Source: an uncultured delta proteobacterium
GTDB lineage: Bacteria; Desulfobacterota; Desulfomonilia; Desulfomonilales; Desulfomonilaceae
DNA: 64,000 bases
NCBI GenBank assembly: GCA_963789265.1
Contig: CAWBKB010000003.1
Span: forward strand, 32,001 to 96,000
Direction of reading: 5' to 3'
The first letter of the stretch is position 1, and every line of letters begins with the position of its first letter. The notes beneath the pieces were generated by a model. The model did not search any database, had not been told where the DNA came from, and saw only the letters and a list, made by a program, of their open reading frames with translations. The position numbers and the translations under genes were made by a program. Positions 56,476 through 64,000 of the stretch are shown in pieces.

Positions 56476-57042
56476 ATGACGACAAGGTCCCACAGTTGCG
56501 TAGGATGTGGTGAACCCCCTAGCAGGGGGGTGAACCGCATCTGTCGCGCATCGGTCATCGAGAGACATCTCGGCAAGGTTTTTCGCGACCGATGCGGTTC
56601 CCCCGCGGTCGCGGGGTTCACCACATCCTACGCACTGATCGGTTTGATCGTGCTAATTGCATTCGTCGCGATTTCTCTGCTCGCCGACCTGCCCTTACAG
56701 GCAGCCTCCACTCCGACTACCGCTCCTCAGAAGAAGGTGATGGGGGTCTCGACTCCGGCACCTCCTTCGCCTATCGCCCCTTATGTGGCCCAGGCATATT
56801 CCATAGTAGGGCCGAGCTACGTATCAACGGTCACATCACAGTCCATTACTCTGTCCACGGGCCGGAACGACCTCGGCATCGATCTCACAGGCAAGCATGT
56901 TGTTGTGATAGATCAGGCTTCCAAACCGCTTACACTGAGTGCCGTACAAAAAGGCACGAGGGTGTACGTATGCCGCAAGGCCAATAATGTAGTTGTCATG
57001 GTGCTTCCAGCCGTCACAACACAAGGAGGAGCAAAGAAATGA
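56476..57042 (+). CDS. Hypothetical membrane-anchored protein preceding the adhesin
   Basis: AAGGAGG RBS; hydrophobic helix; stop overlaps the next ATG. Confidence 0.7.
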   Translation: MTTRSHSCVGCGEPPSRGVNRICRASVIERHLGKVFRDRCGSPAVAGFTTSYALIGLIVLIAFVAISLLADLPLQAASTPTTAPQKKVMGVSTPAPPSPIAPYVAQAYSIVGPSYVSTVTSQSITLSTGRNDLGIDLTGKHVVVIDQASKPLTLSAVQKGTRVYVCRKANNVVVMVLPAVTTQGGAKK

Positions 57043-60000
57043 TGCCGCGTCCACTAATCATCCTGACTGCGTTGCTCACCTTGTTGGGGCTCGTGTTGCT
57101 CGCATCCCCCTGCGGGGCTACCCCTTACAATGCTTGAAGCCTTCCCGCTGTCGCCGGTGTGGCGACCAAACCGAATGTGATGATAGTGATGGACTATTCC
57201 GGAAGCATGCAGTTCCGGGCGCACTATAAGAGTGCATCGCAATTTTGGAACGGTTATTATTCTAACAGCAATGTCGCCTATGGTTACGACGGCACGGAAG
57301 GCACCAAGACAGACGGCGAGCCGTACGATCCTACGCAGACCTACTACGGGCTTTTCCAATCTAACGTATACTATACGTACGACGCGGCGAACAAATACTG
57401 GGTTCCCGCGGCTACCCAACCGGTGACGGCTTATAGTTTCACAGCTCCCAGCCGGGACGGCGGTCCTGTGTCCGCGTGGTCGTCGGGTCAAGCTTATGCC
57501 GTGAATGCCCTGGTCGGCGATGGCGGTAAATCTTATATGTGTACTACTGCCCACACATCTGCTTCAACCAATGAACCGGGAACAGGCTCCAATTGGCCAA
57601 CTTACTGGATCTTAGTAGGATCGGGAACCGAGTTGATACAGTACACAGCAACCGGCCATAACTTCCAGGTGGGGCAGCTCGTTGAATTTCAGGGGCTGAC
57701 GAGTCACACTGGAATGAATGGAAATGCCTACTATGTGACTGCGGTTTCAGGCGACACATTCACGGTGGCATTTCCCTGGAACGGAAACCCGGATTCTGCC
57801 ACCGGATCTGCGCAAAGGCGTATTTCAGGGACCCTTCTGACAACTTACGGCGGAACCGCGCAGACACCCGGCCTCAGCGGCAATATTCTCAACTGTGCCA
57901 CCGCCAGCAGAATTGATTGTTCGCTGCAAGCCCTGATAGGCGGCCCTGGCTCGTGTGATTCCAATTATTGCTACATCAGGGGGCAAGGAGAGAGGAGCTA
58001 TCTGCGAGAATCCTCCAACATTCAGGCGGAGTTCTACGTCCGTCCTGCGTCTTCCGATTCTTCCGCGACTTACCCCGACGACTATAATACCGGTACATAT
58101 ACCACGAAGACGACCTACCTGTCGCTAAGCGGCCGGTATGCCGGGAACGTAACTACCGCGGATCCCGCTTTCGGCTCTGCCTGTACTCATCAGACTTGTA
58201 CTTCACAGCACTGCACTCATCGGTACTGCGATGATGCGGACTGCACCGACTATCCATGCACTCATCAGAGCTGCACTCACTGGACGTGCACCGGCAAGAA
58301 TTGTACTGACACTTTATGCCAGCAAGGCTCCTACAAGTGCAGCCATCGCAACTGCGACACCTACCAGTGCGACCGCTGGGGACCGTGCGATGCATGCAAC
58401 AACTGGCAGTGCGACCAGTGGCAATGCGACGCCTACACTTGCGACCAGTGGTCCGGCGGGAACTATTATGAAGCGTACACATTCACTACCGGGAGCACGG
58501 CCACCCACATAGATCTGGCGCTCACCGGGACTTGGACAGGAGGGACCCAGCAAAACCCAACGCAATCGTACCTGGCGCTCTTTAACAATACGAACTTTTC
58601 AGGAAATTCCCTGGCGTCGGACACGGGCTCTACCGCCAATATATCGTATAACCTTGCTGCGAACACAACCTACTATGTGGTCGTGGCAGCCAACAGTGAC
58701 GGCCAGACAGGGTCTTACACGCTGGCCTCCAGCCAGGAACTGGTGGGTTATGATCCTCGTAACCCCAGCAATCCGAGTGTCTCGCCCGGGACCTTTAGCG
58801 GTCAAAGATTACTTCCGACCGGCTTTGCCGTCCCCTTAGGGTCCATTCCCCAGGCCCAGGTAAAAATCAGGGTAGACGTCAACGCACGAACCGGCATTAT
58901 CCAGCAGACTTTCAGCCAGATCAGGTACGGCTTTATGTACTTCAATTCCAGTTCAGGCAATGTCGGCAAAATCCTGGTCGGCTGCGATAACACAAATCTT
59001 GATACTCTTCTGACCGCGTTTACCGGAATTTATCCGTACAACGGCACGCCCACGGGAGAAGCACTGGAGGCGGCCGAGGACTATTTCGCCCAGTCGACGA
59101 GCCACTCAGGAGACTACTCGAGCAATTCCAATTACATAAACTTAGGGAAGTCAGTAGATCCTTACTACCAGCCGAATGTAAGCGGCAACCTCACAAGTGT
59201 GCCGTGCCGCCAGAGTTATGTTGTTTTGATCTCGGACGGTGGATGGAACGGAAATGTCGACCCCATCAAGCCCGCACGGGGGATGCACGCCTTTGACCTG
59301 AGGAGCGATCTTACCGGTAATCAGTCGGTAAATCTGTACAGCATTTTCGCATTCAGCACCAGTGTGTGCGGGGCTCGCAGTATGCAGGGTGTGGCGATGT
59401 TCGGCGGATTCGCGGACGACACATCCAACTGCGGGGGTACCGGAGGCTCTAGCAACACATGGCCGTACCCTTATACCAGTTATCCATCTGCGTGCGAAGA
59501 CACCAGCATCACTTGCTCGCAGTGCGATGCTTGTAGTTGTTGTCCTCCCAATTGTAGCTCATGTCTTCAGGGAAGCCTATGTATGAATCGGTACCAACCG
59601 AAGTGTGATCCAACCGTGCCCCTGCCCTCAGGCCACTCGTACGATACCTGCTGCAAGGAGTGGGATGCGAACTGGGACAAATATACGTCAGGGGATAATT
59701 TGGATAAGGGGATCCCGGACAATTATTTCGAGTGTTCGCAGGGACAGGATCTTCAGGCAGCCCTCCTGAAAGTCCTCACAGGAGCGATAGTGAAGAATGC
59801 CACGGCCAGCGCGGTTGCCACGGTGGCCCAGCAAACGCAAGAAGGGGATATTATCATCCGCGGCCTGTTTCATGCCGCGGACCCGGATACAGTAGGAAGG
59901 AACCTTTGGCGCGGCCATTTGGAGGCATATTGGCCTTATCTCGATCAAAGCACCATGACATGGCATTATGATTTTGAGAAGAATCCCTGTTTTGAAATCA

Positions 60001-62639
60001 CCGACCCCAACAAGAACTGCTGGGATGCCGCTGAAATATTGCAGAAGCGAGACACAAACAATAGGACCATATATAGTTGGGATCCCACCACAAAAACAAC
60101 AGTGACTATTCCGCAAGTGCCACGTGATACGGGTTCGCCGTTCCCTCCAACCAATCCGCCCTGGAGTTCGTCCCTGACTGCGACGTGGTCCGGCACGCTG
60201 GGTTTGAGCGGCTCTCTGACTGCGCCGGATTTGATCGATTGGGTCCGAGGGGATGACAACATTGTCGACAGCACCTTCGCCTTTAGGGACCGTTCGAATT
60301 GGAGACTGGGAGACATAATCTATTCGACACCGGTAGTAGTGGGGACCCCCGGCGTGGGCATGATTTCGACGAAAGATCCCAACCGGGACGAGTTTTATGC
60401 TTACCGGAACCAAAGCACTGGGTGCCCCTGCACTTCCGCCACTGATACCACTTCTGCATCCTGCCAGAACTGCGTGTACTACAGAGATAAGGTAATCTAC
60501 GTCGGGGCTAACGACGGAATGATCCATGCCTTCCTCATGGCTCACTGGGACGCTACGCGGCAAAAGTGGCTGACCGAACCGGGCAATGACCCTACCAAGG
60601 GCGTGAACGGGGATCCTACCAAAGGACAATATCCCGGCATAGGCACGGAATTGTGGGCCTATACACCTAGCAACCTCTTAACCGAACTTCAGTACCTTGC
60701 GCCCGAAACCTACGGCAACACCTCCTCGTCGGGTGGTTGCGTACACAGAACAATGGTCGACCTGGCGCCCCAATCGTGGGAGGTTTACATCAAGTCACCC
60801 AACTGCCCCATAGGTAGCCCCGGGGGAAGGTGCTGGCGTACTGTCATACTCGGCGGCGAGAGGGGCGGAGGCGATGTCTATTTTGCGATTGACGTCACAG
60901 ACCCTTACAATCCCGTAGTGTTGTGGGAATATTCATTGCTCAAGAACAGGATAATTTATGACACGGGCGGCACACGTTCTCTCACCAACTGCGCAAACAG
61001 TGCTACCGATGGAAATTGCCAGTCAGCTAACTTGAGCACAGCCTACCCGTTTCTCGCTGACCCCACGGTATATGAGAAGTTGAAGATCCTCCCCTGCACC
61101 TGGTCACGGCCGGCCGTGGGGCGACTTAAGATACCGACCTTACTGACTCTTCATACAGGGGATCCCGCGGCCACGGGGACCGCTCCCACGGATGTTACAC
61201 CTTTCGACTTCGACGGCGAGCAGTCCCGAGACGTTGCGTTCATCGGGGGCGGAATCAGGATCTTTCAGGATGACTCGACAATCAACAAGGATCCCTCGGT
61301 GGCCGTGACGACAGAGCAGCTCTCCGCAGCCCAGAGGTTCGATCTATTCCGACCGGACTTTTTGGCCATAGACATCGAGACGGGCACAAACCTGTTCAGG
61401 TATTACTGGCCGCTTATCCAAAATCAAACCGTATTCCAAAATCTGAGTGCGACGAAGTTTTACACTCTCTTTCCGGTGGTAAAATACGGCTCCAATTACA
61501 TTCCCTACTCCATGTCCGACCCACTGGCGCTCGACGTGCTGAACACTTCCGGCTCAACCAGCCTCGGTGTGGGGGATGACGGGTATATTGATACTGTGTA
61601 TGTTGGCGATTTGTTGGGGAACTTTTACGGGCTCAAGTTTAATTTCGCCGAACAGGTCCAAGACCACACCACAGGAAATCTTGTGGCCAACAACAGTAAT
61701 TTTGGCATCAGGGTCGACTGGTGGCAAACCAAGTCGACCTGGGAGGGAAGTCCGGCGACAAACACCAATATGGATTATTATCGGGGCTTGCGGCAACCGA
61801 TCACCGTGCCCCCGGTGGCCAGTTTTGACAGTAACATGTCCAACGGATACTTTCTCCATGTCATTTTCGGGGCAGGCAAATTCGAGGATGTCCCGAACAG
61901 CCAGAACGACGACATGGTTGACATATCGAGGACGTCCATCTACAACCTCAAAGACTTGGTCACTCCGCCGACTGATAACTTCTTCAGTACCCGCGCGCAG
62001 CCGCTCGGGAATTTCAAGATAGAGATAAATCCCAGGTGCCCGCAGTCGCCATACGGCTCGTGCCATACAATTCGGGATTGGCCGAAAAGCGGCGATTCCG
62101 CGTGTGTGTGGGTAAAGGACGACGGCACCAAAGATTGCGGGGAAAATACGTGCCACGAGCCGGCAAACCCGTCAGACGCGTGTGCCGATCCCTGCTGGAA
62201 CTGTATCTTCGATCTCATGTCGCCAACGGACATGACAAAGCCAGGGGAACGTGTGGTGCGAAAGGCACTCATAGCAGGAGGCCTGGTTTTTATCGTTACA
62301 ACATCGCCGCCTTCTACTCAGTGTGAATCGCAAGGCACGAGCAAACTTTATGTGCTGAGCTATGATTGTGGACCCATTCCCGGGGGGCAGGATATATTTG
62401 ATTCCAGCATAACAGCGATCGGGCTCAAGACGGGCAATGTCAACGGGTATGATCCGAGAGGTTGGGTGGTTGATCTTGGCACGGGCGTGGCAAGTAATCC
62501 TGTCCTTGATTCCTCCGGTACTCACGTAATAATTCAAATGAGCACGGGACAAATCCCTACGGATAATGGTGGTGGCCCAGGTCTTAGTGTTAAGTTGCCC
62601 CAAAAAGTTATGCAGCCTGAGGGTTGGCGGGAAAGGTAG
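57039..62639 (+). CDS. pilY1: PilY1/PilC-like type IV pilus tip adhesin, 1866 aa, candidate selenoprotein (TGA at codon 33)
   Basis: AAGGAGG RBS, signal peptide, in-frame TGA 57135-57137, vWA MIDAS DYSGS, GTPTGEAL, VLISDG, propeller motifs RLGDIIYSTP, YVGANDGMIHAF, ELWAY. Confidence 0.88.
57135..57166 (+). promoter_or_regulatory. Putative bacterial SECIS element
   Basis: TGA + 12 nt + perfect stem GTCGCC / loop GGTGT / GGCGAC. Confidence 0.65.
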
Positions 62640-62725
62640 GGTGCACATTCATCCCAAGCATCTACTTTAAAGAAGGCAGATGCAGAGACGAACGCAGCTC
62701 CCTACAAACTCCGTTTCCCTCCCGG

Positions 62726-62878
62726 GACGGTAGCGGCCACCAAGACCCGGACCAGGCCGACTATGACGAGAATCGGTCGGGGGAGTTGCTATCAATGGGG
62801 ATTACAGTAATACGTTTTTGGAATCATGAGGTTAATGATAACATAGATAGTGTGTTGGCAGCGATTAGAGAGGCCCTC
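62726..62878 (+). pseudogene. DUF559 (Vsr-like endonuclease) C-terminal remnant
   Basis: DGSGH...YDENRS..L...GITVIRFWNHEV..NIDSVL..I; no N-terminal half. Confidence 0.75.
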
Positions 62879-62967
62879 ACCCTTGCCCTCTCCCAGAGGG
62901 AGAGGGGACCAGACGGCGGTTCTCACCTGACTCCCTCTCCCTCTGGGAGAGGGCCGGGGTGAGGGTG
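62874..62967. repeat. CCCTCACCC/CCCTCTCCC REP doublet
   Basis: CCCTCACCC..CCCTCTCCCAGAGGGAGAGGG...CCCTCTCCCTCTGGGAGAGGGCCGGGGTGAGGG; same family as the MITE cargo at 51330-51423. Confidence 0.8.
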
Positions 62968-63097: not shown

Positions 63098-63754
63098 ATG
63101 CTTGCTGTTCGACCTTGGTTTCTGGTTTTGGCGATCGTTTTGGTCTGCGCCGGCATTCCTGCCGCACTTGCCCGGGGTGAGGCTCCGGAAGAGCACAAGG
63201 CTGTCAAACCTACCGTGGTCAAGGTCAGAATTGAACCCGCGCAGCCCCGGACGGGAGACAAGGTTAAGATATATTTCAACCTGGGGGGAGGGGCTGAGCG
63301 TGCTGAAGTAAAATGGTCCTTAAACGGCAAAGAGGTCCAGCTTTCGGATTATATTGAAGCATTCAAGTACGTGGAGTTGAACAAGACGCTCAAGGCCGAT
63401 GACAAAGTTATTGCTGTCATAACTCCGTTCGATGCAAACGGGGTTGCCGGGGCTAAGGTTGTCCGGCGGATTGTTTGCGCGAGCGCTCCACCCGAACTGA
63501 AAGTTGTCGATCAGCGGATCGAAGCGGGAGTGTACAAGGCAACCGTGGAAGCCAAGGACCCTCAAGGTGGGCACGTTTCATTGACCCTGGAAAAGGGACC
63601 GCCGGGAATGACGATGGATCCTAAGGGGAACATTACCTGGCCCTTAGGCAGTGATATCGCAGGCAGATTTCCCGTGAAGATCGAGGCAAAGACCGAAAAG
63701 AGCGGCCAAGCAATTCTCTCATTCGACGTGGGCATAAAGAGAGGAAACCAATGA
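63098..63754 (+). CDS. Secreted Ig-like (putative Ig domain) protein
   Basis: Signal peptide; DPQG..V.LTL.KGPPGMTMD.KG.ITW He_PIG-like motif. Confidence 0.75.
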   Translation: MLAVRPWFLVLAIVLVCAGIPAALARGEAPEEHKAVKPTVVKVRIEPAQPRTGDKVKIYFNLGGGAERAEVKWSLNGKEVQLSDYIEAFKYVELNKTLKADDKVIAVITPFDANGVAGAKVVRRIVCASAPPELKVVDQRIEAGVYKATVEAKDPQGGHVSLTLEKGPPGMTMDPKGNITWPLGSDIAGRFPVKIEAKTEKSGQAILSFDVGIKRGNQ

Positions 63755-63869
63755 TCCCGGTCTGCCGCATAGGTGCTTTCTTGCCACCCTCCTCCAAACA
63801 CTCCCGTAGAGGATGGGAAACCTGTGAAGGCGCGCCTGAAACCCTCCCCTACCTCTCGCTCCCAGGTGG

Positions 63870-64000
63870 AATAGGCGCTAACTTGATGTCAGATTCATTG
63901 CATTTGAGGAGACCAGACGGCCGGAGGCCATCAAAGTCCCCCATTTCTAAAGGGAGATTTAGAGGGATTTTCAATGGGTTATCCCCAAACCCCCCCTGGC
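63870..64000. mobile_element. Possible MITE left end with REP cargo (cut by window edge)
   Basis: ATAGGCGCTAAC resembles the ATAGGCGTTAAG end at 46980; followed by hairpin TCCCCC-ATTTCTAAA-GGGAGA. Confidence 0.35.

Follow-up and report, generated by a model that had tools for sequence, protein, structure and literature searches.

A probable selenocysteine codon near the start of a PilY1-type pilus adhesin gene from an uncultured member of the Desulfomonilaceae

We have analysed a stretch of 64,000 nucleotides (hereafter, the window) from an uncultured delta proteobacterium of the family Desulfomonilaceae (assembly GCA_963789265.1, contig CAWBKB010000003.1, positions 32,001 to 96,000 of the forward strand), in which the reading frame of a PilY1-like type IV pilus adhesin is interrupted, close to its start, by a TGA codon at positions 57135-57137 of the window. 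Our analysis has led us to read this TGA as a selenocysteine (Sec) codon, with a probability that we put at roughly 80%. The evidence in hand comprises the conservation of the TGA, the pairing of Cys and TGA at one column of the protein family, a downstream hairpin that is frozen at the nucleotide level, the Sec machinery of the genome, purifying selection on the protein and the pilus gene context of the locus, and the case agrees with the standard in silico criteria for a bacterial selenoprotein gene, as they are given in the available part of PMC9312934. An earlier note on this DNA had proposed the same reading and had named four places where it could fail, i.e. the reads, the homologues, the hairpin and the Sec machinery; all four have been tested, and the reading has failed in none of them.

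The elements of the gene on which this reading is built are the following:

57023..57029, forward strand: Shine-Dalgarno (SD) sequence AAGGAGG, 9 nt upstream of ATG 57039
57039..62639, forward strand: full coding sequence of the PilY1-like precursor, 1866 codons, with TGA 57135 counted as Sec and TAG as the stop
57039..57119, forward strand: predicted Sec-type signal peptide, residues 1-27, read by eye from the translation
57135..57137, forward strand: in-frame TGA, proposed Sec codon U33 (mature residue ~6), from the translation, the homologue column and the run contigs
57138..57149, forward strand: spacer between the UGA and the stem, 12 nt in the source genome and 11 nt in the other TGA forms
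57150..57166, forward strand: proposed bacterial selenocysteine insertion sequence (SECIS) hairpin, with GTCGCC at 57150-57155, the loop GGTGT at 57156-57160 and GGCGAC at 57161-57166

When it is read from ATG 57039, the frame gives MMPRPLIILTALLTLLGLVLLASPCGATPYNA-TGA(57135-57137)-SLPAVAGVATKPNVMIVMDYSGS and then stays open until the TAG at 62639; the long open reading frame (ORF) of the ORF listing, which begins at GTG 57159 (57159..62639, 1826 codons), lies in the same frame. The start codon ATG 57039 shares bases with the TGA (57040-57042) at which the upstream ORF 56476..57042 stops, and the latter is an example of UGA being used as an ordinary stop elsewhere in the genome. The start codon, its SD sequence, the overlap with the upstream stop and the GTG start of the listed ORF had all been described in the earlier note, and each of them is exact to the base; the in-frame TGA and, 12 nt further on, the perfect 6-bp stem GTCGCC/GGCGAC with the loop GGTGT have likewise been verified in the sequence. 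The SD region, AGGAGGAGCAAA (57024-57035), shows no variation among the five congeneric genomes. The predicted signal peptide opens with a charged n-region, followed by a hydrophobic core of 17 residues and by C-G-A ahead of the likely cleavage site, a layout that is identical across all TGA orthologues; the place of the proposed Sec in the mature protein, at about position 6, depends on a cleavage site that we have judged by eye.

Below, G000 denotes the source genome, G001-G004 the congeneric genomes, L loci on other contigs and P database protein entries. The read-through N-terminus has been run as a query against 61 relatives, and then against 122 genomes of the class: each of the four congeneric genomes with an orthologue contains one TGA in the match, and the matches in all other genera are without TGA. 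The TGA column is identical in G000-G004 (..PY[NQS][AP]-TGA-[ST][LV]PAVAGVATKPNVM..), at 50-79% protein identity, and the metagenome contigs L077 and L078 likewise carry the TGA, which, together with the five genomes, amounts to six distinct TGA sequences. As regards contigs from public sequencing runs, contig X1 (56800-57332) has zero differences from the window and contains the TGA, contig X3 (57092-57329), from a slightly different strain, also contains it, and the contig of run X2 stops at 57131, short of the TGA; X1 and X3 represent two public runs that possibly include the source sample, and as independent support they are weak. Contig X3 also carries a C>T change at 57167, the base directly 3' of the 6-bp stem, which is synonymous (ACC->ACT); this variant represents a co-occurring strain that retains both the TGA and the stem.

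The residue that occupies the TGA position across the family has been tallied in 60 distinct homologue N-termini, which a motif search picked out of all the fetched loci, with the column defined as the one located three residues before the conserved Pro. Cys occupies it in 45 of them, TGA in 6 and some other residue in 9, while a narrower tally of 46 N-termini gives TGA 6, Cys 34, Ala 3, Thr 2 and Ser 1; additional Cys forms have been seen besides these. Cys or TGA is located at exactly the same column, and the Cys-x-x-Pro that the earlier note had ascribed to relatives of this protein is borne out by the 45 sequences with Cys. The family motif, [YF]-x(0-2)-C-x-x-P, reaches Aquificota-like and other Thermodesulfobacteriota records; the nearest relatives (P0002, P0004, L075, L076 and L082) have Cys-Cys or Cys-x-Cys at the TGA site. 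The homology to the Cys relatives is unbroken across the TGA, including the signal peptide and Y-x-x-[C/U]-x-x-P. The tree of the near relatives is mostly a polytomy, with P0005 and P0006 as the first branches of the near clade and with strong support for a single grouping, (P0004 Cys, (G004 TGA, P0007)). It requires at least two Sec/Cys switches within the clade, which may have run from Sec to Cys or the other way.

The hairpin that follows the TGA has been compared at the nucleotide level. In G001-G004, L077 and L078, a G at position 57149 gives a 7-bp stem (GGTCGCC/GGCGACC) after an 11-nt spacer, and the energy of the isolated hairpin is -14.3 kcal/mol in the orthologues and -10.3 kcal/mol in G000. 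When the whole gene is aligned at the nucleotide level across the five genomes (6781 columns, 2723 of which are invariant), positions 57150-57169, i.e. the hairpin and the following CAA, form an invariant run of 20 nt, which is the second longest of the gene, the third longest being 16 nt. Across the six TGA sequences, synonymous change is found in none of the 6 hairpin codons and in 12 of the 16 flanking codons with the same residue (one-sided Fisher p=0.0028). Of the 209,656 TGA trinucleotides of the genome, 379 (0.18%) have, 10-14 nt further on, a perfect stem that measures 6 bp or more, with 4 or more G/C, and that encloses a loop of 3-7 nt with a G within its first two positions. Among the homologues, judged by a fixed criterion, the hairpin occurs in 6/6 of the TGA forms and 3/3 of the near Cys forms, but in 0/42 of the distant Cys forms and 0/9 of the sequences with another residue. 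One distant Cys form encodes the similar peptide P-V-V-G-V-A-T and has no stem, so amino-acid constraint alone does not yield the stem. The loop GGUGU is invariant only among the TGA forms, and it is altered in two of the three near Cys forms. The expectation of the earlier note that the hairpin would be conserved has held, in the sense that it is nucleotide-invariant and present wherever the TGA occurs; the stem covariation that was also expected is absent among the TGA forms, where the hairpin is invariant. A scan of 56900-57400 against Rfam (E<=10) has returned no SECIS family and just two chance-level matches.

The longest invariant run in the five-genome alignment is a different one, located in the core of the signal peptide (57081-57101, TTGTTGGGGCTCGTGTTGCTC, 21 nt). 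As a candidate recoding signal this block has been dropped, with two synonymous changes occurring in the TGA contigs L077 and L078; its invariance may be due to chance or to a constraint that acts near the start, on rare codons or on RNA structure. A pairing between the SD and an anti-SD, proposed by RNAalifold, has also been set aside, with several of its pairs broken in G000.

As for the machinery that the decoding of Sec requires, which the earlier note had left to be looked up, G000 encodes a tRNA-Sec (71.3 bits in Rfam; anticodon TCA in ARAGORN), selA (594 bits), selB (386 bits) and a selD that has its own in-frame TGA; selA and tRNA-Sec are found in all four of G001-G004. Besides the adhesin, G000 holds six more in-frame-TGA genes of known selenoprotein families, each with a downstream stem-loop, namely SelD, two genes of the molybdopterin/FdhA type and three of the FlpD/MvhD type (C7:193442-194362; C1:2103466-2104734; C4:139176-140786; C3:722868-723236, 727630-727998 and 1001699-1002070), and the source organism is a multi-selenoprotein anaerobe. 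The SECIS of the FdhA gene at C1:2103466-2104734 consists of the UGA, 11 nt and GGUGGCA/GGUCU/UGCCGCC (7-bp stem), and that of SelD of the UGA, 13 nt, 7 bp and the loop GGA; in the second FdhA gene and the three FlpD/MvhD genes, the spacer measures 14-22 nt, the stem 5-9 bp, and a G stands at the first or second place of the loop. With its spacer of 11-12 nt, its stem of 6-7 bp and its loop GGUGU, the PilY1 element fits the SECIS elements of its own genome and is nearest to that of FdhA.

In E. coli fdhF, the SECIS-dependent decoding of an in-frame UGA as Sec relies on an 11-nt spacer and an apical GGUCU. The adhesin gene is similar to such FdhA systems in its UGA, its spacer of 11-12 nt, its G+C-rich stem of 6-7 bp and its 5-nt loop beginning with GGU, as well as in the presence of selA, selB, selC and selD in the genome. 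It is unlike them in that the adhesin is not an oxidoreductase, the proposed Sec being located 6 residues into an exported N-terminal tail and not in an active site, and in that its putative SECIS lies in the codons for V-A-G-V-A-T, at the entry of a vWA-like domain.

Several observations weigh against the reading of the TGA as a Sec codon. The stem of G000 is one pair shorter than that of the other TGA forms (T at 57149; 6 bp, 12 nt). Stem conservation is not exclusive to TGA, because the three near Cys forms whose DNA is available retain the stem: L075 with the loop GGCGC, L082 with the loop GGGAT, and L076, where the closing pair C-G has become G-U, with two synonymous changes; the stem of these Cys forms fits a remnant SECIS, in agreement with the Sec/Cys switches that the tree requires, but it could also have another, second role. 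The fold of 57125-57200 is no stabler than that of shuffled sequences (z = -0.58), and the minimum free energy structures of G000, computed over 76 nt and over 60 nt, prefer an alternative extended pairing; the fold energy being unremarkable, the hairpin is distinguished by its position and its conservation. RNAalifold does recover the hairpin, but with zero covariation, as the TGA forms are invariant. The orthologues of G001-G004 are split by frameshifts, and decay of some copies is possible. Finally, Sec would be unusual in a non-enzymatic exported protein, and the reading is founded on sequence data.

Among the other explanations, the one that survives best, although we consider it improbable, is a shared ancestral nonsense mutation, by which TGC or TGT would have become TGA in the ancestor of the genus, with the gene dead or dying ever since. 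In its favour are the occurrence of the TGA form in a single genus, in a search of 122 genomes from the class, and the several frames into which the orthologues of G001-G004 are broken. Essential rpoB, however, is fragmented to the same degree (three reading frames in G000, at C3:808388-812571, and eight pieces in G004, on C32), so the frameshifts of the orthologues are ascribed mainly to assembly error and are no sign of a pseudogene. In G000, the 1826-codon frame is unbroken; in all six TGA sequences, the SD, the start codon and the signal peptide are kept; and the frozen synonymous sites of the hairpin would be unexpected in a dead gene. The comparison of G000 with G001 over 1319 codons (residues 510-1866) yields a nonsynonymous divergence (dN) of 0.11, a synonymous divergence (dS) of 0.62 and a dN/dS of 0.18, accumulated after the split of two TGA carriers, and the protein has been under purifying selection since the TGA arose. 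Apart from this gene, the indel-prone nature of these assemblies makes broken frames poor evidence of a pseudogene, unless they are checked.

We regard it as quite unlikely that the UGA is read by a standard tRNA (e.g. a near-cognate one for Trp or Cys), with the hairpin acting only as a pause or read-through stimulator. The retention of the stem in Cys forms, which need no SECIS, does suggest that a SelB-independent role may exist; on the other side stand the full Sec machinery, the geometry and loop of the hairpin, which match the FdhA and SelD elements of the same genome, the confinement of an invariant GGUGU to the TGA forms (with changes in two of the three near Cys forms) and the identity of the aligned residue, Cys being the usual partner of Sec.

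There is very little, in our estimation, to commend termination at the TGA, with the adhesin being made, without a signal peptide, from GTG 57159 or a later ATG, and with the 32 upstream codons unrelated to it. This is how the gene appears in the ORF listing (57159..62639, with the GTG start), and gene callers have begun the near relatives P0003, P0005 and P0006 just past the same column; but GTG 57159 is without an SD and lies inside the loop of the hairpin, an ATG at residue 48 or 51 would cut the first vWA-like strand, a PilY1-type protein that lacks a signal peptide could not get to the pilus, and the homology runs on over the TGA, through Y-x-x-[C/U]-x-x-P and the signal peptide. A sequencing or assembly artefact in place of TGC, TGT or TGG is hardly conceivable in spite of the many indel errors of the assembly, since a single indel cannot create the TGA when the frame is identical on both sides of it, and the check on the reads that the earlier note had proposed finds the codon unchanged in five assemblies, in two metagenome contigs that come from different data sets and in the contigs of two runs.

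With the TGA read as Sec, the gene product is predicted from its sequence to be a PilY1-family type IV pilus protein with an 1866-residue precursor, in which two regions have been located:

57168..57206, forward strand: first vWA-like strand and D-x-S-x-S motif of the MIDAS type (adhesion site dependent on metal ions; KPNVMIVMDYSGS), from the translation
61575..61889, forward strand: PilY1 beta-propeller match, residues 1513-1617 (Pfam PF05567)

The match to PF05567 scores 33 bits against a cut-off of 28.1, with only residues 1513-1617 aligned; the sole sequence match in the Protein Data Bank (PDB) is the P. aeruginosa PilY1 structure 3HX6, a weak one (E 6.6e-5), and close relatives carry the name PilY1 in their source records. 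NCBIfam has no model for the protein. The evidence for the vWA domain is weak, with no Pfam VWA match at E<=0.01 and Foldseek matches to vWA domains of the PDB at E ~0.02; the MIDAS-type motif DYSGS is invariant in the relatives, and the motifs GTPTG and SDG are also conserved. Foldseek matches against the PDB are weak domain matches only, including one of a PPC-like insert (E 7e-4). The AF2 model of residues 28-1000 has a mean pLDDT of 75.6 and a pTM of 0.75, and the first 14 residues of this mature construct, the Sec position included, have a pLDDT below 50. Within an insertion of the vWA-like region, residues ~404-487 (~58249-58500) form dense, short Cys-spaced repeats (CTHQTCTSQHCTHRYCDDADCTDYPCTHQSC...); this stretch has a pLDDT below 50 over construct residues 365-434, and its length is highly variable among the relatives. 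The adhesin resembles the PilY1/PilC tip adhesins, such as P. aeruginosa PilY1 and the PilY1.3-type proteins of M. xanthus, which have an N-terminal vWA domain, in its C-terminal beta-propeller match, its N-terminal MIDAS-type motif, its signal peptide, its richness in Cys and the pilin-like genes close by; it differs from them in its far greater size (1866 aa) and in the large insertions of its vWA-like region.

If the TGA is indeed decoded as Sec, translation would initiate at ATG 57039, and the stem-loop 57150-57166 (loop GGUGU), located 11-12 nt past the UGA, would recruit SelB together with Sec-tRNA(Sec), with the result that Sec would be inserted at residue 33 in place of termination. 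The precursor would be exported via its signal peptide and cut after about residue 27, and the Sec would end up in a flexible N-terminal tail, at about its sixth residue, just ahead of the vWA-like domain. There it would take over the job of the family-conserved Cys, i.e. that of a reactive thiol or, in this case, a selenol of higher reactivity, which would serve to form a reversible Se-S/S-S link or to bind a metal. The candidate roles named in the earlier note were a Se-S bond, a redox or metal sensor and a dependence of pilus assembly on selenium. That Sec does the job of the conserved cysteine is the most likely role for it, and one that we infer, like the actual insertion of Sec and the cleavage site, the sole basis for the role being the replacement of a conserved Cys.

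The search for a partner of this residue has yielded two rejected candidates. The conserved C723, located before the strand with the MIDAS Asp, is not an obligate partner, because it is kept when the N-terminal Cys is absent: it stays Cys in 6/6 motif-recovered proteins without the N-terminal Cys and, in a separate alignment, in 7/7 such sequences. The single Cys of the small, co-transcribed protein encoded directly upstream is not a general partner either: at no fewer than nine loci, L, M, W or I stands in its place next to a PilY1 that retains Cys. Several half-conserved Cys columns vanish along with the N-terminal Cys, none of them one-to-one.

Cysteines of PilY1 proteins have been the subject of previous work. 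According to the available text of PMC8806160, Cys152 and Cys147 of the vWA domain of P. aeruginosa PilY1 matter for surface/force sensing; these residues are internal to the vWA domain, whereas the Cys/Sec of the adhesin is located in the N-terminal tail, and an equivalence between them is only putative. The myxobacterial PilY1 clades differ in their cysteine content (PMC13190605, in its available text). In the available text of these two papers no Sec-containing PilY1 is mentioned, and the word selenocysteine is absent from that of PMC13190605. The retention of the stem in Cys forms also has a precedent, as remnant SECIS-like structures after Cys codons have been described in FdhA and HesB-like proteins (Zhang et al. 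2006, PMC1794560, in its available part); similarly, L075, L076 and L082 keep the stem after a Cys codon, with loops that are still G-first. The remnants in that available part are said to descend from selenoproteins, whereas the Sec/Cys change in the adhesin may, on the tree, have gone either way.

The families of the SAO system (bioRxiv 10.1101/2022.07.06.499078, in its available part) are comparable to the adhesin in that their database entries are typically cut at the UGA and in that they were found via Cys/Sec alignment; the system includes a substrate-binding-like lipoprotein and a signal-peptide family, which are not stated there to contain Sec. Unlike the adhesin, the families of the main text belong to transport and organometallic chemistry, none of them being a pilus protein or an adhesin, and the main text of this preprint on eight new families is without the terms pilus, pilin, PilY and von Willebrand. 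The terms pilus, PilY and VWA are equally absent from PMC9312934, PMC12013277 (deep-Sep; text and four supplements) and PMC5029168 (Peng et al. 2016; text and five supplements). The literature searched, with subscription-only papers outside its scope, contains no pilus, PilY1 or vWA selenoprotein. No paper in it mentions a selenoprotein together with PilY1, and none combines selenocysteine, an in-frame UGA and pilus assembly; SECIS, selenocysteine and the type IV pilus occur together only in a review on engineering methanogens, and selenoprotein families and pilus only in work on amber read-through in E. coli CS3 pili, both as represented by their available text. The statement of the earlier note that no PilY1 is known among the described selenoprotein families holds within this literature, and the absence of an NCBIfam model is in line with it. 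The adhesin is probably, then, a new selenoprotein family that is decoded by the ordinary mechanism, with a host protein that is new to selenium biology; within the literature searched, it would be the first described Se-containing pilus or adhesin family. Bacterial selenoproteins are mostly thought to act in redox reactions, according to the available parts of the review literature.

The genes on both sides of the adhesin, of which two are located at least partly in the window, are consistent with a pilus locus:

56476..57042, forward strand: gene of a small secreted protein, translationally coupled to the adhesin gene (ATGA overlap), from the ORF listing and homologous loci
63751..64000, forward strand: first gene of the downstream pilin-like cluster, continuing past the end of the window

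The small upstream gene is located directly 5' of PilY1-like genes in many genera (L022-L123), in TGA and Cys forms alike, and its product, which belongs to no family of Pfam or NCBIfam, could be a hitherto unnoticed partner or chaperone for PilY1 proteins of this class. The 5' part of its ORF is occupied by a palindromic element (56497-56634), so its true start probably lies past 56634. The outer arms of the palindrome (56497-56518/56613-56634, 22 nt) are 100% complementary and its inner arms (56528-56548/56584-56604) 90% complementary, with a 151-nt fold of -98.7 kcal/mol. The element is one of a family of dispersed repeats, of which three more copies are near-full-length, at ~80-82% identity (C7:51050, C7:404039 and C1:2475960), and many others partial. 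The pilin-like cluster (~63751-67473, corresponding to L128:1752-5474) is located on the same strand, 1.1-4.3 kb downstream of the adhesin gene and mostly beyond the window; it encodes three proteins with PF07963 (the N-terminal methylation motif) and a further one whose PilX_N match, at 25.0 bits, stays below the cut-off of 25.5. The order of the genes is PilY1, a DUF559 ORF, a He_PIG-like secreted protein and the pilin-like genes, and from this gene content the locus is a predicted type IV pilus minor-pilin/PilY1 locus. The DUF559 (endonuclease-like) ORF, 62624-62962, which starts 16 nt ahead of the adhesin stop, is an odd insertion in such a locus.

For the annotation of this lineage, the finding means that its PilY1-type genes are mis-annotated, being either cut at the UGA, with the loss of the signal peptide, or begun at an internal start, as is apparently seen in the database entries P0003, P0005 and P0006. 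In a further, tentative step, which we think has a minor share of the probability, the PilY1 of this Desulfomonile-related genus would be the first selenoprotein that is a surface adhesin and not an enzyme, with its selenol serving as an extracellular redox or mechanical latch, or as a hook for soft metals or minerals, with a selenium-dependent pilus tip and with repeated switching between Sec and Cys. In the latch version, a reversible Se-S bond would be formed with the vWA-like domain or with a partner; the assembly of the pilus tip would be selenium-dependent because the UGA sits 32 codons into the gene; and the hairpin frozen in the Cys relatives would record repeated switching between selenium-dependent and selenium-independent adhesins. 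If the TGA is a Sec codon, piliation would be tied to the availability of selenium, the Sec and Cys forms would provide a natural pair of adhesins for probing the function of an extracellular selenol in anaerobes, and selenium biology, through a Sec residue in an exported pilus-tip adhesin of such a size, would come to include structures of the cell surface.

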